A stretch of DNA of 64,000 bases from a plasmid, in the NCBI RefSeq assembly GCF_055900595.2, contig NZ_JBVWEU010000002.1; one strand, 5' to 3'. The notes under the pieces are model-generated. The model made no database searches, had not been told where the DNA came from, and saw only the letters and a list, made by a program, of their open reading frames with translations. Made by a program: the position numbers and the translations under genes. Positions 8,458 through 19,482 of the stretch are shown in pieces. How positions within the stretch are numbered: the stretch's first letter is position 1; every line of letters starts with the position of its first letter.

Positions 8458-11280
8458 TTATTGCTTGTGCTTATCCTGATACTCCTTTGCTCTTTTCATC
8501 AGTTCCTGTGGACTGTCAGCCCCGGGCATTCTTTCCTGACCCGATTTTTCTTCATTATATTTATTATTCTGAGATAATGCCTCTGTTTTATGGTGATTTT
8601 GTAGTTCAGAATACTGTCTTCCTACAATATTTTCTTCGCCACGTATGCTGCTCTGAGTATCTCCGATATTGCCTCTGTATTCTGTGACCATATTATCAAC
8701 CTGATGTTTTACATCATTACGGATATTACTGTCCTGCGTTCTTTGCTCAATAATGGCCTGATGCCCCTGATGATCAGCAATAATATCCTGGCTGCCACCC
8801 CCCGAAGGTACGCTCTCCATTCCTTTACCGATGTCCCCACGGGATTCACGCCAGGCATTATCAACACCAGGCTGCACCTGTTCCTGAACAAAAGACCACG
8901 CCATAGCCCGACGGCGTTCTGCAATCTCCGGGGAACTGGTGTTTGTCAGAATAGCTTCGGCATCCTGCGGCGCGTGTTTCATCACATACTGTGCAAACTG
9001 TTGCGACAGGTCTTCACTCATCTGCCCACTCATGCTTTCAGTACGGGATGCCATTTCAGCATATTCATGGCTGCGGGTCATATTCGTCGTGTACTGGTCG
9101 TAACTCTGTTTTGCTGAGTTCAGGGCTGCAGACAGCTGGTCCACACGGGAATCGGCATTATTGTCCGTATGGCTGCCGGATTCACTGACCTTGCGACTGG
9201 TAAAGTAATCGCTGGCCTCTTTAAAGTCTTGTGTAGCCCTGGCATCGATATCATGGCGAGCATCATGGCTGGCCCGTGAACCACTGCTGGCCTGATGCGC
9301 ATCCTCATCACTCCAGTCAATACTTGCCCGACCACCACCTCTAACACCTACGCCACCACCAACACCAAGAATTTTAGGTTTAACCCCCCATTCAGCATGA
9401 GCATCGCCATACATCCCCGCAGAACCTCTCGTACTTCTTGATGCCAGTTCTCTTGTCGCCTGCTCATTACTGATATTATGCGCCTTCGCATAGCTTTCCA
9501 CTGCGCTGCGCATACGGCTGGCCATCATGGAGTCCTGTGCACTCATCGTGCTGTCAGCACCACCGGTGACAGAATCACTGCTCCCCCGGTTAGAACCAAA
9601 CTGACTGAGCGAGTTCCAGGCACTGGCAATACTGCTGCTGAACCCATGCAGGGCGCTTTCTGCTCTGTTCGACGCCTCCCGGGCCATTTCCTGTTGTGCC
9701 GCCGCAATCTGACGCGTTGCATTGATACCGACCGGTAAACGGGACATCGCCCCGCTCGCATCCATCACCATATTACCGTCACGGGTCTGTGTGGCGGTTG
9801 CGCCACTGCCGGTCTGGTACATCATCTGACCAAACGACGTGGTGCTGTTGGTGCTCCAGCTGAATCCGTTCACGTTTTCCGTCTGCATGTTGCCGTAGGA
9901 GTAATTACCGTCAACCACACTACCTGCCGCACTGGCAGTCGGGCTGATAGCAGAGGAAGCGAAATGGCTGTACACACTGGAAAATCCGGCCCCGAGTCCC
10001 CTGACCATCATCCAGGATAATGGCGGGATCATCATGGAAAGATACCCGGCAGTGGAAGCCAGATCGGAGTATTTCAGCTGTATCTGTGAAATTTCCGAGA
10101 GCACCACCGGTGCACCATTCTGCTTCGCATAAAATGTCATGGCGCTGTTCAGAATGGCGTACAACATTGGCCATGACTGCAACCACATCAGGGCAAACAC
10201 ATAGCCTTTCAGGACGGACAGCGTCAGTTTGTTGAAGACAGCCGCCAGTACCAGAAGCGGGAAAATACCGATGGCGATCCCCGTCAGGATGGTCTGCGTC
10301 ATGGGCAGTGTCCGCATCGCCACATGACCGATGGAGACATGTGCCAGACGTTGCTTCTCCATCGATGACGTGGTGGCCAGATTCACCAGGCTGGCTGAAT
10401 CACCATTACGCGCGGCATAACTGGTGATCCCCTCCTTCAGCGCATTGATGGTGACATTCTGGCGGATGATCTGGCTGGCTGATTTACTTGAGCCATAGAA
10501 GTAACTGTAACTGTCGCCAATCAGCGTACTGAACAACAGGTTCGGATCAGGGCGTCCACCAAATAGCTGCTGGGCATAATAATGCCAGGTTTTTCCGCCA
10601 CTCTGTGTATCCAGATTCAGCTTGTCTTTCAGCGAAACCGACGCGTCCTTACAGGTCACGAAATTATTATTGCTGTCATAAACGCCCCGTAGCGGACTGG
10701 GGCGGGAAAAAATCAGCGTGTAGGGATCAGCGGAGGCCATCAGCTCCTCCAGCGTGTATTTGTGGTTCAGGTAAATATCCCCCATCACGCAGTTCTGCAC
10801 ATAATCCTGGAAAAGATTGGCGATTTCCGGATTGCGGGACAAAAAGTCGGTGCTTTTTGATACCAGTTCTGCGCCAAACAGCATCCCCGTTTTGCTGTAG
10901 GTGACACTGTCCGGTTGCGTGAAGATCATCTCGTAACTGGCCACCATTGCATGCCCGATACGGGTCGTCAGTGAAAGTGGCATCGCCAGTCCGACCGGCA
11001 CATTATCCACCCGGTGAACTTTGACCAGGTCACTGTTATCAATAATCTGCACCGATGTGCGGACATTAACCAGCAGGCTGATAAGCACAAACACGGCCAC
11101 CCAGCCCAGCAAATCCATCACGTTGTGCCGCTGTACCCACATTACGGCCACCGCGAGAACAGACAATGTGAGCGCAATTTTTTCAATGGAATCCCACGTC
11201 CGGGTCCCCATAAAGGCGGCAATGGCATTCAGGTTATTCCGCAACCACTCACCACCGGCAATCACATAAACTTCATTCAC
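8458..11280 (-). CDS. traG: TraG mating-pair stabilisation / pilus assembly protein (940 aa)
   Basis: Size and position (F TraG is ~938 aa). N-terminal polytopic membrane domain plus large periplasmic C-terminal domain. Confidence 0.93.
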   Translation of the reverse strand: MNEVYVIAGGEWLRNNLNAIAAFMGTRTWDSIEKIALTLSVLAVAVMWVQRHNVMDLLGWVAVFVLISLLVNVRTSVQIIDNSDLVKVHRVDNVPVGLAMPLSLTTRIGHAMVASYEMIFTQPDSVTYSKTGMLFGAELVSKSTDFLSRNPEIANLFQDYVQNCVMGDIYLNHKYTLEELMASADPYTLIFSRPSPLRGVYDSNNNFVTCKDASVSLKDKLNLDTQSGGKTWHYYAQQLFGGRPDPNLLFSTLIGDSYSYFYGSSKSASQIIRQNVTINALKEGITSYAARNGDSASLVNLATTSSMEKQRLAHVSIGHVAMRTLPMTQTILTGIAIGIFPLLVLAAVFNKLTLSVLKGYVFALMWLQSWPMLYAILNSAMTFYAKQNGAPVVLSEISQIQLKYSDLASTAGYLSMMIPPLSWMMVRGLGAGFSSVYSHFASSAISPTASAAGSVVDGNYSYGNMQTENVNGFSWSTNSTTSFGQMMYQTGSGATATQTRDGNMVMDASGAMSRLPVGINATRQIAAAQQEMAREASNRAESALHGFSSSIASAWNSLSQFGSNRGSSDSVTGGADSTMSAQDSMMASRMRSAVESYAKAHNISNEQATRELASRSTRGSAGMYGDAHAEWGVKPKILGVGGGVGVRGGGRASIDWSDEDAHQASSGSRASHDARHDIDARATQDFKEASDYFTSRKVSESGSHTDNNADSRVDQLSAALNSAKQSYDQYTTNMTRSHEYAEMASRTESMSGQMSEDLSQQFAQYVMKHAPQDAEAILTNTSSPEIAERRRAMAWSFVQEQVQPGVDNAWRESRGDIGKGMESVPSGGGSQDIIADHQGHQAIIEQRTQDSNIRNDVKHQVDNMVTEYRGNIGDTQSSIRGEENIVGRQYSELQNHHKTEALSQNNKYNEEKSGQERMPGADSPQELMKRAKEYQDKHKQ

Positions 11281-12653
11281 AGCGTGCTCCCTCCGAAGTG
11301 ATAGTTGTTCTGGTAACGACTGAGCATGCGGGCGGAAAGCTGCTGACGCATGTAGCTCATCTGACGATCGACGACCAGCAGCGCATCCTGCTGTACCTGC
11401 ACCTGTGACTGAAACGCCGCAATCTGCCGGGTGGCATCATTCATGTTGTCGTTAATATGTTCGATAACTGCTTCGTCATAATTTCCTGTGGCCACCATCG
11501 CCCGGGCCTGCTGTATCAGCTCCTGAATGTACTGCAGCAGGATGTCGTAACCGATATAGTCCGTCAGCTGGTAAATCATACTGTTGGAAACACCGAGCAT
11601 TTGCGGGTCAACCAGGTATTTGAAGACGGGGATGGTGGTACTGGAAATAAAGCCTTTTTCCTTGTCATCCAGAGGCGTGTCACTGACCGCCTTGTTCTGA
11701 ATGCTGGCCAGAAGTTTAGTAATCTGAGACTTCAGTGCATTATCCCGGCTGATGGTCACCGGTGTGTCTGCCACCACTTTCAGGCATTTATCAGAATCGT
11801 TGCAGTGATAAATTTTTGCTGTGCCGCCTTCCATCATGACCCGGATAATTGAGCGGTCAGTGGTTCTGGCTGACAAGGGTGTGATTTCGCCGTTAGGACC
11901 AAACACCAGTGAGCCGGTCAACGTCATCACAAACTCTTTCAGCTCTTTGTTGCCGTCAAACATTCTGTTTTTGGAAAGCGCATTCCACATGATGTTGATG
12001 TTTTTGGTCACCCGCTCCTTATCCTTGTCGCTGGCTTTATCCCTGACACTGTCAGATTTCCCGCCAACGGTACATCCCTGCCGGGAAGCCGCCCAGTCAG
12101 CAAAAATATTGCTCTCACCGGCAATGTCCTGACAGACTTTCTGCTGGGACACCTGCGTCCGGGGGAAAAGCCCGCCGATAATCCCCTGTGCCGCCTGGCA
12201 GGAACTGAGGTTCATACTGTTAATGTCGCTTGCCATTTTCTGCAGGAAGTCTTTTGCGGTTTTGATTTCCGGCACCGTTGTCTGCAGGGCAAGGTCAAAA
12301 AAGTAACCGGCAGCATTGCTCATAATCTGCTTAACAAAACGCTGCAGCTGCTCGCCATTAATAAAACTGAACGAGCCGAGATAAGCGTCGATGCCGCCAC
12401 ATCCGGCATTGATATCCGGCAGCGTCATGGAAATCAGCTGAACATTTTTGACCTGAGTACGGGCATACAGGGAGCCACCGTAAGCATAACCGGCGGCCTG
12501 CCCCTGCCAGACGCCCGGCTGTGTGGTATTGGAGGCGAAGCCCAGCTTGTTAAAGAACTGATTCATGTCGCTGTTCACATCCGCTGACGCTGCGGGTGTG
12601 ACCGTCAGTAAAGCAGCACAAAGAACCAGAAGAGGTTTAATGCGTGGCATCAT
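11277..12653 (-). CDS. traH: TraH pilus assembly protein (458 aa, signal peptide)
   Basis: Size identical to F TraH. Synteny traH then traG, with 4-nt overlap. Confidence 0.93.
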   Translation of the reverse strand: MMPRIKPLLVLCAALLTVTPAASADVNSDMNQFFNKLGFASNTTQPGVWQGQAAGYAYGGSLYARTQVKNVQLISMTLPDINAGCGGIDAYLGSFSFINGEQLQRFVKQIMSNAAGYFFDLALQTTVPEIKTAKDFLQKMASDINSMNLSSCQAAQGIIGGLFPRTQVSQQKVCQDIAGESNIFADWAASRQGCTVGGKSDSVRDKASDKDKERVTKNINIMWNALSKNRMFDGNKELKEFVMTLTGSLVFGPNGEITPLSARTTDRSIIRVMMEGGTAKIYHCNDSDKCLKVVADTPVTISRDNALKSQITKLLASIQNKAVSDTPLDDKEKGFISSTTIPVFKYLVDPQMLGVSNSMIYQLTDYIGYDILLQYIQELIQQARAMVATGNYDEAVIEHINDNMNDATRQIAAFQSQVQVQQDALLVVDRQMSYMRQQLSARMLSRYQNNYHFGGSTL

Positions 12654-13045
12654 TCTTGCCCTCCCTTAATTTGTTCTCCCGGCGCATACGACATTTCAGC
12701 AGGAATATCCCGATATTTCCGTCCAGTCCTGCGGCTGTAATATATTTCAGACACCGAAATCCATCCCACAATTGCCCCCACAAAAAACACAACAGAAACA
12801 GAAAAGGTAAGGCACAGCGAAACGACAATTTCTACAGGGCTGGCGGGATAAAAAAGCCCCTGATGGATAAAGGGGATATTCAGGCTGACGATTATTCCCG
12901 TCGCGATGCCGGATATTCCGGCAATGAGTAACACCACCTGCTTATTTCGCACCTTTTTTTCCTCCGTACATCTGCAGAACGGTATCCATCCGCGCCATAA
13001 AACCGGCGGCATCCGTTGCCCCCTGTAAAAGCGGTAATGCCTCAA
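12650..13045 (-). CDS. trbF: Small membrane protein in the TrbF/TrbJ position (131-aa ORF)
   Basis: Position between trbB and traH. Size close to F TrbF (~126 aa). Overlaps the 3' end of trbB. No separate trbJ ORF of 60 aa or more was seen. Confidence 0.5.
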   Translation of the reverse strand: MRHYRFYRGQRMPPVLWRGWIPFCRCTEEKKVRNKQVVLLIAGISGIATGIIVSLNIPFIHQGLFYPASPVEIVVSLCLTFSVSVVFFVGAIVGWISVSEIYYSRRTGRKYRDIPAEMSYAPGEQIKGGQE

Positions 13046-13487
13046 GCGTGTTGACGTTGACCAGGAAGGTGGTCGGTGTGGCCACCGGGATATTCGGGAA
13101 GAAGGTCTGCATCACGTCCGGTGGCACCGGTAATGCTTCCGGAAAGGCGGTATCCCCCTGACCATCCAGGGTGTAGGGAAAAACGGAAAAGCCGTACTGC
13201 TGTGCCAACTGCTTCAGTACCGGGTCAAACTGGTGACAGTAAGGGCAATGCCCCTGCATAAACAGCACCACCTTCCAGTCGGCCAGGTTAACCTGCCTGC
13301 CGTTGCTGAGGCGGAACCAGCGGGGGGCCGGCTTTTCTGTCCTGGCTGACGTGTCTGCTGCCGGTTGTGCAGGCTGCGCGGCCATACCCTGCGGATTCCA
13401 GAGTCGCTCTATTTCATCCCGGGTGGAGGCCTGCACACCTGTGGCCATCATCAACAAAATGACCGGCAGTAAGTTAGTGAGAGACAT
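12942..13487 (-). CDS. trbB: TrbB periplasmic thioredoxin-fold disulfide isomerase (181 aa)
   Basis: CxxC motif (GHCPYCHQ), signal peptide, size equals F TrbB. Confidence 0.87.
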   Translation of the reverse strand: MSLTNLLPVILLMMATGVQASTRDEIERLWNPQGMAAQPAQPAADTSARTEKPAPRWFRLSNGRQVNLADWKVVLFMQGHCPYCHQFDPVLKQLAQQYGFSVFPYTLDGQGDTAFPEALPVPPDVMQTFFPNIPVATPTTFLVNVNTLEALPLLQGATDAAGFMARMDTVLQMYGGKKGAK

Positions 13488-13758
13488 GTCCGCCCTCCTG
13501 CTGCTCTGCCATCATGGCCTGTTGCCTGGCTTCCAGTGCCTCACGCTCTTCCCGGCTGACACGGGCAATCCATGCATCCAGCACCTGGTATGCGCCGAAC
13601 AGCACAAGGATGGCCGCAATCAACTCCGCCAGAAAAAAAGCCATCCAGGGTTTGCTGTAAACAAGACGGGCGACGATATGAAACCAGACACCCAGGGAAA
13701 ATACCCACATTCCCGTAATATCAAGCCGGGGTAAAGAGAATCTGCGTTTACTTATCAT
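13474..13758 (-). CDS. traQ: TraQ pilin chaperone (94 aa)
   Basis: Size equals F TraQ. Membrane helix plus charged C-terminus. Synteny. Confidence 0.85.
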   Translation of the reverse strand: MISKRRFSLPRLDITGMWVFSLGVWFHIVARLVYSKPWMAFFLAELIAAILVLFGAYQVLDAWIARVSREEREALEARQQAMMAEQQEGGHVSH

Positions 13759-13876
13759 GTTAAACTCCGGTTATTATTTACATGAGAGTATTTATGTCTG
13801 TAATATTCGCGTTTGTGTGATATTAATCAGATCAACCTCATTATTTTGTATGGTTTTTATTACCGTTTTATATGAC

Positions 13877-14224
13877 TTAGCCTGTCATAAGCCCCCTTAT
13901 AAAAAACCACATCACTCCGGACCATACTGATGACAACATAATACAGATAAATATTCTTCTGAACCCGTCGAAGCTCGTAACGTTCGGTAATGAGCCAATA
14001 ACCATTGGAACAACCATTGCTGCGCCCTGATTCATAATTGCACCACACAGAAACCAGAGACTGGCAGTCAGCACATATAAACACGCGATATTAATAACAA
14101 GGAAAACCAGTGAGCTCAGGAGAAACATTTTCCTGTCATTACGCTCAGAAAAGAAATAACCGGCAATAATGACAAATATTAACAGAACAACACCTGTAAA
14201 CAGTTTCAAATAATCTTCACTCAT
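13877..14224 (-). CDS. trbA: TrbA inner-membrane protein (115 aa)
   Basis: Size equals F TrbA. Hydrophobic. Position between traF and traQ. Confidence 0.75.
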   Translation of the reverse strand: MSEDYLKLFTGVVLLIFVIIAGYFFSERNDRKMFLLSSLVFLVINIACLYVLTASLWFLCGAIMNQGAAMVVPMVIGSLPNVTSFDGFRRIFICIMLSSVWSGVMWFFIRGLMTG

Positions 14225-14239
14225 AAATCAAATCCGCGA

Positions 14240-14983
14240 TTAAAAATTGGGTTTAAAATCTTCAGAAACGTTCAGGAATTGTTTTGCCAGGTCGTCCTGC
14301 GAAATAAAGCCGTATGATAACGGGCGAACACTGCCCTGTTTCGGGTCAACCAGCATCATGGCCGGGAAATATTTCACGCCGAGGCGCTGCGCCTGCCCCT
14401 GGTCAGTCCGGGAATCCGGCAACAGCGGATTAATCACACCATCCACGGAAACGGGAATAACACTCAGACCATAGGTATCCCTGAAGCCATTAATGACCTG
14501 CGCCAGCTGCCCGTCGATGGGGTCCTGCCCCCGGTAAAAGAACATGATGCCGTAGTGTTCAGCCAGTTTCGCAATGGCCTGTCGCTGCTGCACCTGGTCT
14601 GCCGCCAGCTGGTTCCGGACCGTGCCGTTGTAATGGCTGTACTGCAGGTTATAGTCCAGTTCGGGATGCGCCAGCATGGCTTTTTTGGCGCTCATGGTGA
14701 AAAGCCCGGCCTGCTGAGTCCAGTAATTCTGCAGCCGGAAATATTTCACAAAATTATCCACGCCGGGATACAGAATGGCTTCGTACAGCGCCCGCTTTGT
14801 TGCCGTCTGCAGTGCGGCCAGTTTCTGCATAATGTCCGGCTCCTGACGGGGGGCTGCAGGTACTGGTTTATTTTCTTTTTCCTTCGGATTTATTTTCTCG
14901 TTATACCACTGCCAGCCTGCATCTTTTCCTGACGCCGGAAAAATAAAGCAGCAGAGTAACAGTGGCAGTAATGCTTTATTCAT
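14240..14983 (-). CDS. traF: TraF pilus assembly protein, thioredoxin-like fold (247 aa from MNKALLPLLL)
   Basis: ORF 14240..15013. Start trimmed to the Met giving the F TraF length and a signal peptide. Confidence 0.9.
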   Translation of the reverse strand: MNKALLPLLLCCFIFPASGKDAGWQWYNEKINPKEKENKPVPAAPRQEPDIMQKLAALQTATKRALYEAILYPGVDNFVKYFRLQNYWTQQAGLFTMSAKKAMLAHPELDYNLQYSHYNGTVRNQLAADQVQQRQAIAKLAEHYGIMFFYRGQDPIDGQLAQVINGFRDTYGLSVIPVSVDGVINPLLPDSRTDQGQAQRLGVKYFPAMMLVDPKQGSVRPLSYGFISQDDLAKQFLNVSEDFKPNF

Positions 14984-15203
14984 CTTCATTCCTTTCATCA
15001 CTTTTTCTTTCATCAGGTTTCTGCAGGTCAGTCAGGGCAGAAAAACAAAAATACAGAATAAACAGGAGCACACCGGAGTAAAAAATAACGAAAGCAGCAG
15101 CAAGTATCTCACCTGCAGTGGTTTCTTTTACCGTATCCCACGACCAGATAATTACCGGGGAAATGACAATCGCTGTAATCAAAAGCCGGATGCGTATTCT
15201 CAT
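14976..15203 (-). CDS. trbE: TrbE small membrane protein, probably 5'-truncated (75 aa versus ~86 aa in F)
   Basis: Hydrophobic small ORF overlapping the traF start. Its ATG directly abuts the IS-type terminal motif at 15203, and an in-frame stop lies 4 codons upstream. Confidence 0.6.
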   Translation of the reverse strand: MRIRIRLLITAIVISPVIIWSWDTVKETTAGEILAAAFVIFYSGVLLFILYFCFSALTDLQKPDERKSDERNEDE

Positions 15204-15290
15204 GAAAGGAGATCACTCAATAACTTCCATCGAGATCGGGTAATAACGGCGTTTTTCAAGGTAGTTGTCGCCTTTTGTAATAAAATTACG

Positions 15291-16196
15291 TTATGCCGCT
15301 TCTTTTTCTGGATTCAGATAAACTGCCTGAATGAGTTCCCAGTCACGCAACTGTTTGCTCCAGCGCTCAGGATGACGTTTGCGAGCTTCGCGATAAACTT
15401 TTTTTCTGGCTTCCAGTATTTGTGCGTCAATTCCGCGATGGCGTTCATCCGGAGTAACATACTTAATACCGCTGTGCTTGTGTTCCAGGTTGTACCATCG
15501 CGTGAACTTGCTTAACCAACTTCTGGCTTCATCTATGGTTCGAAAACCATTCTCTGGCCACCATGGACAATACTTAATCGTCCGGAAGAGCGATTCGGAA
15601 TAAGGGTTATCATTGCTGACCCGGGGACGGGAATAAGAACTTAATACGCCAAGCGCGTACATTTTTGCCAGTAACGTACAACTGCGCATTGGTCCTCCGT
15701 TATCAGAATGAAGCACGAGATTGCGGGATGAACATTTTTCATTCCATACAGCACGTTGAAGCAGTTCTGCCGCATACTGCCCAGATTCTTTCGTAAATAC
15801 TTCGGCAGCAATAATTTTTCGGCTATAAATATCGACGATCATATAGAGATAAAAATGCTGCCCCTTAACCCACGATGGGATATAACTAATATCCCAGCTC
15901 CACACCTGGTTGGGGGCTACAGCTTTGAGTACTTCAGGCCGCTTATATTGGTGTTCACGGGTTCTCCTTGTCAGTTGGTTAGCTGATTTTAATACGCGAT
16001 AAAAAGTTGATTCTGACGCGATATAAACCCCTCTGTCGGCAAGAGTCGGAACAATAATATTCGGAGACAATGATGCAAACTCCGGAGAATTGCATACATC
16101 AAGTATTCTTAATCTTTCTGTTTCTGACAGTTTATTCCCCGGGGTACGCCTTGATGCACCTGGTCTCTGATCTGTATGAACCACACCACCCTGCAT
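15291..16196 (-). CDS. IS3-family transposase OrfB (DDE/rve integrase core, 301 aa)
   Basis: Motifs WSWDISYIP, HSDNGGPM and YSESLFRTIKY (E-x7-K) are typical of IS3-family / retroviral-integrase catalytic domains. Confidence 0.85.
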   Translation of the reverse strand: MQGGVVHTDQRPGASRRTPGNKLSETERLRILDVCNSPEFASLSPNIIVPTLADRGVYIASESTFYRVLKSANQLTRRTREHQYKRPEVLKAVAPNQVWSWDISYIPSWVKGQHFYLYMIVDIYSRKIIAAEVFTKESGQYAAELLQRAVWNEKCSSRNLVLHSDNGGPMRSCTLLAKMYALGVLSSYSRPRVSNDNPYSESLFRTIKYCPWWPENGFRTIDEARSWLSKFTRWYNLEHKHSGIKYVTPDERHRGIDAQILEARKKVYREARKRHPERWSKQLRDWELIQAVYLNPEKEAA

Positions 16197-16315
16197 CCAA
16201 CGTTGAAGTGTTCTGACTGAAATACCAATACACTGGCAGGCTTGTGTTTTTCTCGCTCCTGAACTGACAGCCTCGCTGACCAGATTAATAATCTTCTGCC
16301 GCTCTGGAAGAGGAG

Positions 16316-16861
16316 TCAGCCTTCCTCGCTGTTGTCCCAGAGGGCATTGAACTTTTCCCTTAACATCAAAAGAGCAGCTGCTTCCGCCAGAGCTTTATCT
16401 TTACGGAGAAGTTCTTTTTCCAGTTCCCGTAACTGGGTCTTTGCTTCGCGTAATTCTTTATCAGCACGGCGACTTTCTGCCATTTTCATTTCATGAGCCT
16501 GAATGGATATAGCTCTCCATTCTTTAACTTGCTCAACAAATAACCCCATTCTCCGACAATAATCAGCCAGTTCCATTTCAGATAATGTTGCAGTTTCAAT
16601 TACAACAGAAAATCGTCGCTCCGGTGTCCATTCATTTCCATCGACAGAAGATATTTTTTCATTTTCAGGTAACAGGCCTTGTTGCACCAGTTCAAGTCTC
16701 CATCTTGCTATTACTGAAGGGCTCAGGTCCAGTTTACGAGCAATATGCCGTATGGACCAACTATAAGGTGGTAATAACCAGGTAACACCTTGTTCTTTTA
16801 TATCAATTGGTACTGCATGTGCGGGCATAGTCTCTCTCCTGTGTAAAAATCTAGGCGACAA
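16316..16861 (-). CDS. IS3-family transposase OrfA (HTH DNA-binding, leucine-zipper-like C-terminus)
   Basis: Immediately upstream of orfB in a different frame. The 120-nt gap between orfA stop and the first orfB ATG may indicate a frameshift-fusion arrangement or decay. Confidence 0.7.
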   Translation of the reverse strand: MSPRFLHRRETMPAHAVPIDIKEQGVTWLLPPYSWSIRHIARKLDLSPSVIARWRLELVQQGLLPENEKISSVDGNEWTPERRFSVVIETATLSEMELADYCRRMGLFVEQVKEWRAISIQAHEMKMAESRRADKELREAKTQLRELEKELLRKDKALAEAAALLMLREKFNALWDNSEEG

Positions 16862-17020
16862 CTATGCTGACACAGGGGGATAACATTTGAACAGATCGCT
16901 GAATAACATCGATGGAGATCACTTTTGACTCATTTTGTTATTCAGTGATCTCCATCAATGTTATTGGAACTTCACAGGTGTGTTGATCTGTATCTTTTGC
17001 CATTCCGGTAAAGGATACCT

Positions 17021-18562
17021 ATGCCAACAGTTCCAATTTCTATGAGAAAACTTAAAGAAATTCTTAGGCTTAAATACGGTGTTGGACTCAGCCATCGACA
17101 AATTGGTCGTAGTCTTGCAATCTCCCCTTCCGTTGTATCCAGATATGCTAATCGGGCGGCTCAACTTGGCATAAAGCAGTGGCCCTTACCTACAGGATGG
17201 GATGATACAAAACTAAAACATGCGTTCCTTCAGACCCAGGTTAAGATGAAGAAGCACTCTCTGCCTGACTGGGCTACAGTACACCGGGAACTGCGTAATA
17301 AATGCGTGACGCTGCAGCTACTCTGGGAAGAATACTGTGAGCGTAATCCAGGCGGTTTTTACAGCTATAACCATTACTGCCGGATGTACCGTGAATGGCT
17401 CAAAACCACTTCACCATCAATGCGTCAGGTACATAAAGCTGGCGAAAAACTTTTCGTTGATTACTGTGGACCTACCGTTGGCGTTACCGACCCTGAGACC
17501 GGAGAAATAAGAACTGCTCAGGTCATCGTAGCTGTTCTCGGGGCATCAAGTTACACATGGGCAGAGGCCACCTGGTCTCAGCAGCTTGAAGACTGGGTGA
17601 TGAGTCATGTTCGCTGCTTCCAGTGGTTGGGTGGCGTTCCTGAACTTGTTGTTCCGGACAATCTGAAAAGCGCCACATCCAGGGCATGTAAGTATGATCC
17701 TGACGTTAACCCTACCTACCAGCAGATGCTTGAGCATTATAATGTCGCAGTTTTGCCTGCGCGGCCACGTAAACCGAAAGATAAAGCCAAAGCTGAAGTT
17801 GGCGTTCAGGTTGTTGAACGCTGGATCATGGCCCGAATCAGGCATGAGATCTTCTACAGCCTTGCATCGCTTAATCAGCGCATTCGGGAGTTGCTGGAAA
17901 GACTGAATAACAAAATAATGCAGAAGTTGGGTTATTCACGTGCAGAACTCTTCATCCAGCTTGATAAACCCGCACTGAAGCCTCTTCCTGAAGCCAGTTA
18001 CAGTTACACCCTGGTGAAGAAAGTCAGAGTTCATGCCGATTACCACGTGGAAATCGACAAACATTACTACTCGGTTCCATGTTCGCTGTTAGGCCAGCAA
18101 CTGGAAGCATGGATCTCCGGAGAACTGGTAAGACTCTTCAATCAGGGGCAGGAGGTTGCTGTGCACCCGCGCAAGCGTACTTATGGCTACAGTACCCGCA
18201 ACGAGCACATGCCTGAAGCTCATCGACAGCATGCCACCTGGACGCCAGAGCGTCTTCTGGAATGGGCGGGGCACATAGGCAGTGAAACTCATAGTTATGT
18301 GCTTCATATACTGAACTCTCGTCCACATCCGGAACAAAGCTATCGCTTCTGCCTTGGACTCCTGAACCTTCATAAAAAATACAGTAAAGCCAGACTTAAT
18401 GCAGCATGTGCAAGAGCTCTGAAAACAAAGGTATGGCGTCTGTCAGGTATTAAATCGATCCTGGAAAAAGGTCTGGATAAACAACCTGTTCAGGATCCAA
18501 AACCAGATCTGTTATCCACGATGGAACACGAAAACGTACGCGGCAGTGAGTATTACCACTGA
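17021..18562 (+). CDS. istA: IS21-family transposase IstA (513 aa)
   Basis: N-terminal HTH plus DDE core typical of IstA. Followed 11 nt later by istB. Confidence 0.9.
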   Translation: MPTVPISMRKLKEILRLKYGVGLSHRQIGRSLAISPSVVSRYANRAAQLGIKQWPLPTGWDDTKLKHAFLQTQVKMKKHSLPDWATVHRELRNKCVTLQLLWEEYCERNPGGFYSYNHYCRMYREWLKTTSPSMRQVHKAGEKLFVDYCGPTVGVTDPETGEIRTAQVIVAVLGASSYTWAEATWSQQLEDWVMSHVRCFQWLGGVPELVVPDNLKSATSRACKYDPDVNPTYQQMLEHYNVAVLPARPRKPKDKAKAEVGVQVVERWIMARIRHEIFYSLASLNQRIRELLERLNNKIMQKLGYSRAELFIQLDKPALKPLPEASYSYTLVKKVRVHADYHVEIDKHYYSVPCSLLGQQLEAWISGELVRLFNQGQEVAVHPRKRTYGYSTRNEHMPEAHRQHATWTPERLLEWAGHIGSETHSYVLHILNSRPHPEQSYRFCLGLLNLHKKYSKARLNAACARALKTKVWRLSGIKSILEKGLDKQPVQDPKPDLLSTMEHENVRGSEYYH

Positions 18563-18573
18563 TACGGGATCCA

Positions 18574-19323
18574 ATGATGAATCATCTTTACGAACAACTG
18601 ACCGCACTTAAACTCACCGGCTTCCGTGATGCGCTTAAAAAGCAACTTGCTCAGCCGGGCACATACCAGGAGCTGGGCTTCGAAGAACGCCTGTCATTAC
18701 TGACAGCAGAAGAACTAACCTGCCGTGAAAACAGGAAGGCAGAGCGTCTGATCAAACATGCACGGTTCAGACTTAATGCTGAGTTATCAAAGCTGGATTA
18801 TCGTAACAATAGAGGGCTGGACAGGGCCCTCATCCGTTCACTCAGTCAGGGAAACTGGTTAACCCTGAAACAAAATATTTTACTGACCGGGGCCACCGGC
18901 AGCGGTAAAACGTTCCTGGCATGTGCACTTGGTCATAATGCCTGCCGACAGGGATACAAGGTCTACTATTATCGCCTTAAAGCGCTGATGGAACAGTGCT
19001 ATCAGGGGCATGCTGATGGAAGATACAGCAAACTTTTGACCAGGCTGAATAATAGCGATCTGCTGCTTCTGGATGACTGGGGGCTGGAACCTCTCTCATC
19101 AGAACAGCGTAGCGACCTGCTGGAAATAGTGGATCTGATGTACCAACGAGGCTCAATCATCGTAGTGAGCCAGTTGCCGGTGGAAAACTGGTACAAAATG
19201 ATCGGAGACTCCACACATGCGGATGCCATCCTAGATCGACTGGTTCATGGCAGTATCAAGATCGAACTTAAAGGAGAATCAATGCGGAAAATACAATCTC
19301 CGTTGACCGAAGGAGATCAGTGA
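18574..19323 (+). CDS. istB: IS21-family helper ATPase IstB (249 aa)
   Basis: Walker A LTGATGSGKTF and Walker B LLLLDDWG. DnaC-like AAA+ protein as in IS21 IstB. Confidence 0.9.
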   Translation: MMNHLYEQLTALKLTGFRDALKKQLAQPGTYQELGFEERLSLLTAEELTCRENRKAERLIKHARFRLNAELSKLDYRNNRGLDRALIRSLSQGNWLTLKQNILLTGATGSGKTFLACALGHNACRQGYKVYYYRLKALMEQCYQGHADGRYSKLLTRLNNSDLLLLDDWGLEPLSSEQRSDLLEIVDLMYQRGSIIVVSQLPVENWYKMIGDSTHADAILDRLVHGSIKIELKGESMRKIQSPLTEGDQ

Positions 19324-19482
19324 AGGTAATTTAAAAACGGTTCTGTGAAAGTGACACGAACCGATCTCCATCGATGTTACTCACCGATCTCCTTCACGGT
19401 AATACGCACCGGATAAGAAAATCAATAAAACGGTTCGACGTGAATATGACTTTCATCATTTTCCCCGGTTATTTTCCCTACC

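Follow-up and report, generated by a model that had tools for sequence, protein, structure and literature searches.

A trbJ gene with a trbF-derived 3' end between trbB and traH of F-like plasmids

Results

One long reading frame between trbB and traH

The window (the whole stretch of plasmid DNA analysed, 64,000 nucleotides of contig NZ_JBVWEU010000002.1, assembly GCF_055900595.2) carries its tra operon on the minus strand, with a single long open reading frame, 12650..13045 (-), between trbB and traH. The same interval of the F plasmid (NC_002483) holds two genes, trbJ at 83347-83688 and trbF at 83675-84055. The frame and its neighbours in the window are:

11277..12653, minus strand: traH, the downstream neighbour, NCBIfam-confirmed
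12650..13045, minus strand: the frame in question as called mechanically, 131 aa from a TTG start, the first 11 codons probably untranslated
12942..13487, minus strand: trbB, the upstream neighbour (NF010288, 330 bits)
13474..13758, minus strand: traQ, NCBIfam-confirmed
13877..14224, minus strand: trbA, NCBIfam-confirmed
14240..15013, minus strand: traF, NCBIfam-confirmed

The frame overlaps the 3' end of trbB by 104 nt and encodes two strongly hydrophobic segments on the Kyte-Doolittle scale. An earlier description made from the letters alone (the sequence-only reading) had reported exactly this, a lone 131-aa membrane ORF running into trbB where F has two genes. The length of 131 aa is a product of the mechanical rule that takes the first start after a stop; credible starts give 120 or 100 aa. 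At the downstream end, traH begins with two adjacent ATG codons (ATGATG, 12648-12653), of which the mechanical ORF takes the first (458 aa) and PGAP the second, at 12650 (457 aa). The TGA stop of the upstream frame spans both.

The sequence-only reading had also denied the presence of any separate trbJ-sized ORF of at least 60 aa. No such ORF resembles TrbJ, but two frames above that size do exist: a 95-aa ORF on the opposite strand of 12644..12931, and a nested one:

12637..12828, minus strand: ORF in another frame, 63 aa from a TTG, probably not a gene

Neither shows any likeness to TrbJ. The last 28 residues of the nested frame are a remnant of the C-terminus of R100-type TrbF (..IFLLKCRMRRENKLREGKNDATH) and match the TrbF model at positions 113-140 of 140, with only 21.7 bits (cut-off 144). 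The search for short ORFs in 12900-13100 that had been recommended was run down to 20 aa and yielded no further candidate.

The frame encodes an F-type TrbJ

Which of the two F genes does the single frame represent? Matched against NF010265, the NCBIfam model of F-plasmid TrbJ (PRK13711), it scores 240.2 bits (E 2.9e-72; cut-off 164). The profile aligns over almost its whole length, positions 1-114 of 115, beginning at ORF residue 12, and the 100-aa version that starts from a GTG still exceeds the cut-off with 187.7 bits. The TrbF model NF010306 (PRK13743; cut-off 144 bits) finds no match in the frame at E <= 0.01, whereas its positive controls, the TrbF proteins of F and R100, reach 195 and 238 bits. 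No Pfam family matches the frame at E <= 0.01 either, so it finds no place among the P-type TrbJ proteins (RP4/Ti, VirB5-like).

Searches of the window with the F proteins lead to the same assignment. With F TrbJ, tblastn gives one sole match, at 13012..12686. With F TrbF, only residues 88-126 (the last ~39) align, at 12778..12653; the TrbF body (residues 1-103, with two hydrophobic segments) is absent across the 64-kb window. Thus trbJ is present and trbF is missing. The sequence-only reading, which by implication took the frame for the trbF counterpart, had the two genes reversed, and the comparison with F TrbJ and TrbF that it proposed speaks against a missing trbJ. Of the three fates it offered for trbJ (absent, fused, or below the ORF threshold), "fused" comes nearest: the gene is present as a trbJ-trbF chimera that ends in the last 23 trbF codons.

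The frame is therefore a member of the F-type TrbJ family with a variant C-terminus, and is neither TrbF nor a P-type TrbJ. As in F, R100 and R1, it lies directly downstream of trbB and overlaps its 3' end. Two putative transmembrane segments are predicted by Kyte-Doolittle at residues 4-29 and 37-72 of the 100-aa form, matching those of F TrbJ. The native acidic C-terminus (..LNESSEISEGTYNERK), after which trbF would follow, is replaced by a TrbF tail, a variant feature that does not disqualify the frame from the family. Many E. coli IncF plasmids share the surrounding 1.4 kb at 100% identity. PGAP names the gene trbJ in the 100%-identical plasmids, in the order trbB-trbJ-traH and without trbF.

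The product name of NF010265, "P-type conjugative transfer protein TrbJ", is misleading and apparently a naming slip; its matches all lie in MPF_F plasmids. The model also seems to take in sequences of the fusion type, as its last positions are weakly matched by the F TrbF tail.

Two credible starts

The TTG at 13045 is unlikely to be the true start, as no Shine-Dalgarno-like sequence lies upstream of it and the TrbJ profile match begins only at residue 12. The start is likely one of two others:

12650..13012, minus strand: trbJ in the PGAP form, 120 aa, from an ATG inside trbB with AGGGGG 6 nt upstream (equal to trbJ 1751-2113 of locus L001)
12650..12952, minus strand: trbJ from a GTG 8 nt before the trbB stop (GTGCGAAATAA), 100 aa, with GGAGG 8 nt upstream

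PGAP uses the GTG at 12952 in plasmid p2005FS026. This GTG corresponds to the start of the classical F TrbJ product, which is reportedly 93 aa long. By its own terms, the sequence-only reading would fall if this stretch held a homologue of TrbJ beginning with a codon other than ATG, and the form beginning at GTG 12952 is arguably one.

Structure of the trbJ-trbF fusion

Aligned to F, the DNA of the window shows a single gap of 346 nt with near-identity on either side. The segment that the window lacks, NC_002483 83637-83982, has 36% GC, compared with 48-57% in the flanks. The chimeric gene can be divided as follows:

12723..13012, minus strand: trbJ-derived part, 97 codons from the ATG, the last being the split Gly codon GG|A; it holds both hydrophobic segments
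12722..12723, minus strand: probable deletion junction, inside a Gly codon (GG from trbJ, A from trbF)
12650..12722, minus strand: trbF-derived tail, 23 codons (RKYRDIPAEMSYAPGEQIKGGQE) and a TGA stop, in the frame used by F trbF

The trbJ part is identical to F TrbJ in 93 of 97 residues. The tail matches the 3' end of F trbF in 22 of 23 residues and 96% of nucleotides. Lost relative to F are the last 16 trbJ codons with their stop, and trbF codons 1-103.

Like F TrbJ, the window gene follows trbB, starts within the trbB 3' end, encodes the same pair of hydrophobic segments and falls under the same NCBIfam model. Unlike F TrbJ, it carries 23 TrbF residues in place of the final 16 (LNESSEISEGTYNERK), and the next gene is traH rather than trbF. 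With F TrbF (126 aa) it shares the C-terminal 23 residues and the overlap of the TGA stop with the traH start (ATGATG). Residues 1-103 with both hydrophobic segments, present in F TrbF as well as in the R100/R1 protein (130 aa), are missing from it. TrbJ and TrbF are themselves alike in that a basic tail follows their two hydrophobic segments.

The junction is common among F-like plasmids

The junction was traced with a 54-nt probe, 27 nt from each side, such that no 28-nt megablast word fits one side alone. The probe matched 780 PLSDB plasmids, none below 95% identity and 558 of them at 99% or more. Of the 3,904 plasmids with a match to this operon segment they make up about 20%, and 774 of the 780 are predicted by MOB-suite to be conjugative. 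Among 5,426 complete E. coli genomes, 683 (about 13%) carry the junction. Carriers include pAPEC-O2-R (NC_006671) and a plasmid of strain DSM 30083 (= ATCC 11775). In pAPEC-O2-R and p135-3 (NZ_CP080263; WP_010379880.1), junction and gene order are identical to those of the window, and no difference is seen at the locus; p135-3 is 100% identical over 12400-13800, and its copy of the same allele is already annotated trbJ.

The layout with trbJ and without trbF is thus ordinary and already known, since the allele stands annotated in hundreds of public records. Published gene lists of IncFII(pCoo) plasmids show trbJ without trbF (PMC8703133), and a survey of 256 F-like plasmids found non-essential tra genes variably present (PMC5102898).

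A bioRxiv paper on pTA-Mob 2.0, in which trbF is mentioned many times, was set aside. It concerns an unrelated conjugation system, RP4/IncP-type judging by its gene set, where both trbF and trbJ are essential.

trbF alleles and their reading frames

The 103-aa TrbF body was detected by tblastn in 4,618 PLSDB plasmids. Of the plasmids inspected, R100 and R1 carry it between trbB and traH, and so, with a sequence 33-40% identical, do two IncFII-typed plasmids of Klebsiella/Enterobacter (L013, L014). In these two, as in the window, a lone gene for a small membrane protein separates trbB from traH. They are nevertheless the mirror image of the window: their lone gene is trbF (147 aa), set apart from trbB by just 45 nt in the order trbB-trbF-traH, and no trbJ could be detected. 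This suggests that trbJ is restricted to the E. coli-type F/R100 group and that trbF is the older gene.

The alleles of trbF are diverse, at 72-100% nucleotide identity in about 2,800 trbF-bearing plasmids (an approximate count, since the query joined 316 nt of trbF to 30 nt of the shared tail). The junction allele, unlike these, is nearly uniform. Divergence between F and R100 is locally concentrated in the trbF body, which has 76% nucleotide identity, compared with 96% in trbJ, 97% in traQ, 93% in trbB and 84% in traH.

Near the 3' end of trbF (around 2955-2975 of the F locus L003, compared with L004-L012 and L015), a run of T's counts seven in F and in the Shigella pINV allele, and six in pHS13-1 and p2005FS026. 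Because of this difference, the last ~30 codons of F TrbF (126 aa) are read in another frame than those of the R100/R1-type protein (130 aa), which ends in ..LKRRMRRE.. and terminates 14 nt inside traH. The last ~75 nt before traH (window 12650-12722) contain two open frames in every allele examined, and which of them encodes the TrbF C-terminus differs between plasmid lineages. Constraint from the traH ribosome-binding region, or genuine dual coding, might underlie this. With its trbF tail frame-shifted relative to R100-type alleles, F is not a typical reference at this locus.

Discussion

Loss of trbF or gain of trbF?

How did a single gene come to stand where F has two? The gene is very probably the F-type trbJ of a widespread F-like plasmid lineage in which one deletion of 346 bp fused trbJ codon 97 in frame with the final 23 codons of an F-type trbF. 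The tail of the window and its traH are F-type (96-97.5% of nucleotides) and not R100-type (80-84%), which places the deletion allele inside the diversity of trbF-bearing plasmids. Judging by the identity of the junction across plasmids, it would have a single origin. The alignment with F reveals no microhomology at the breakpoints that would account for such a deletion. F does contain a 10-bp direct repeat, CGGAAATATC (L003 2651-2660 and 2985-2994), whose copies lie 14 nt in from the left breakpoint and 1 nt in from the right. Had they recombined, 14 nt now absent from the window would have stayed behind, and a repeat-mediated deletion was rejected. An unequal crossover between TrbJ and TrbF as paralogues was likewise set aside as unsupported: BLASTP returned only a 38-residue hydrophobic match with E = 0.006 in a single comparison.

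Could the window instead preserve the ancestral state? On this account trbJ at first ended with the present tail, and an AT-rich insert of 346 bp, as found in F, R100 and R1, split trbJ and created trbF. The low GC content of the F-specific segment (36% against 48-57%) would suit such an insert, as would the clean breakpoints without microhomology and the fact that the TrbJ profile spans the fused form (positions 1-114 of 115). Yet distant F-like plasmids of Klebsiella and Enterobacter carry trbF in the same slot with no trbJ, diversity among trbF alleles far exceeds that of the junction allele, the tail lies in the trbF reading frame in every allele examined, and both the tail and the traH of the window fall inside the F-type lineage; gain of trbF by insertion is accordingly very improbable. 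It is scarcely credible that the ORF is a trbF counterpart, with trbJ missing or hidden in a short unlisted ORF: its 131 aa approach the 126 aa of F TrbF and its 23 C-terminal residues are genuine TrbF sequence, but it earns 240 bits from the TrbJ model and no match from the TrbF model, F TrbJ aligns to 13012..12686, and the ORF scan down to 20 aa left no other candidate for trbJ. An assembly or sequencing artefact can be dismissed, as 780 plasmids sequenced independently, and 683 complete genomes, share the identical junction.

Neutral scar or functional tail?

Under the preferred reading, a deletion that removed trbF, the event would most likely be a single illegitimate deletion that cost the plasmid an accessory gene and was neutral or nearly so. 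It would have happened to be in frame and to have kept the compact packing of trbB, the altered trbJ and traH, with the GTG start overlapping the trbB end and the TGA overlapping the traH ATG as in F. The product would be a small protein with two predicted membrane helices, combining the TrbJ hairpin with the C-terminal tail of TrbF. Because both TrbJ and TrbF consist of two hydrophobic segments and a basic tail, the fusion should keep the predicted hairpin topology. By the positive-inside rule the tail would be cytoplasmic, as expected for TrbF too. Translational coupling into traH is likely preserved, given that the stop/start overlap is retained.

The same facts might be read as signs of selection. 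The fusion is in frame, an outcome with a chance of 1 in 3, and stops right at the start of traH, as trbF does in F; of the three substitutions that separate the F and window tails, two are silent in this frame; and the allele is common among plasmids predicted to be conjugative. Perhaps, then, the TrbF tail supplies what matters of TrbF, or coupled translation of traH needs it. Three substitutions, however, are not enough to demonstrate selection, the R100-type plasmids translate this DNA in a different frame, and each of the three frames would end at the traH start or immediately to either side of it, so we consider selection for the in-frame fusion unlikely. Quite unlikely, too, is the more specific proposal that the chimera is more than a neutral scar, its cytoplasmic tail being the relevant part that contacts another Tra protein or keeps traH translation coupled. 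Were the tail functional in this way, it would explain how an in-frame fusion that stops precisely at the traH start became so widespread, reaching about 13% of the complete E. coli genomes.

Loss of trbF by deletion, with the TrbF body absent from the window, suggests that TrbF and the native C-terminus of TrbJ are dispensable for conjugation. Plasmid pEC_B24, which by its published description lacks trbF and artA, is nonetheless "easily transferred by conjugation" (PMC2887853). Natural variation adds evidence that neither TrbF nor the TrbJ C-terminus is needed for transfer. For annotation, the puzzle posed by the single ORF is corrected: comparisons against F should expect a common lineage without trbF, in which trbJ bears a trbF-derived tail.

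Other features of this tra operon

Between traN and traF, an insertion of ~4.2 kb (15192-19408) lies inside trbE, about 14 codons from its start. About 6 nt are apparently duplicated at its ends (15186-15191 and 19409-19414). Its ORFs comprise an IS3-family transposase gene and an IS21-family istA/istB pair:

15291..16196, minus strand: insertion ORF
17021..18562, plus strand: insertion ORF
18574..19323, plus strand: insertion ORF

The insertion may exert polarity on transcription from the main tra promoter into traF-trbJ-traH-traG, and may matter more for the transfer of this plasmid than the trbF deletion does.

The spacer between trbA and traQ (13759-13876) measures 118 nt in the window and in R100, compared with 396 nt in F. 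The F antisense gene artA is absent from the window, as in R100, with only its last 14 codons left.
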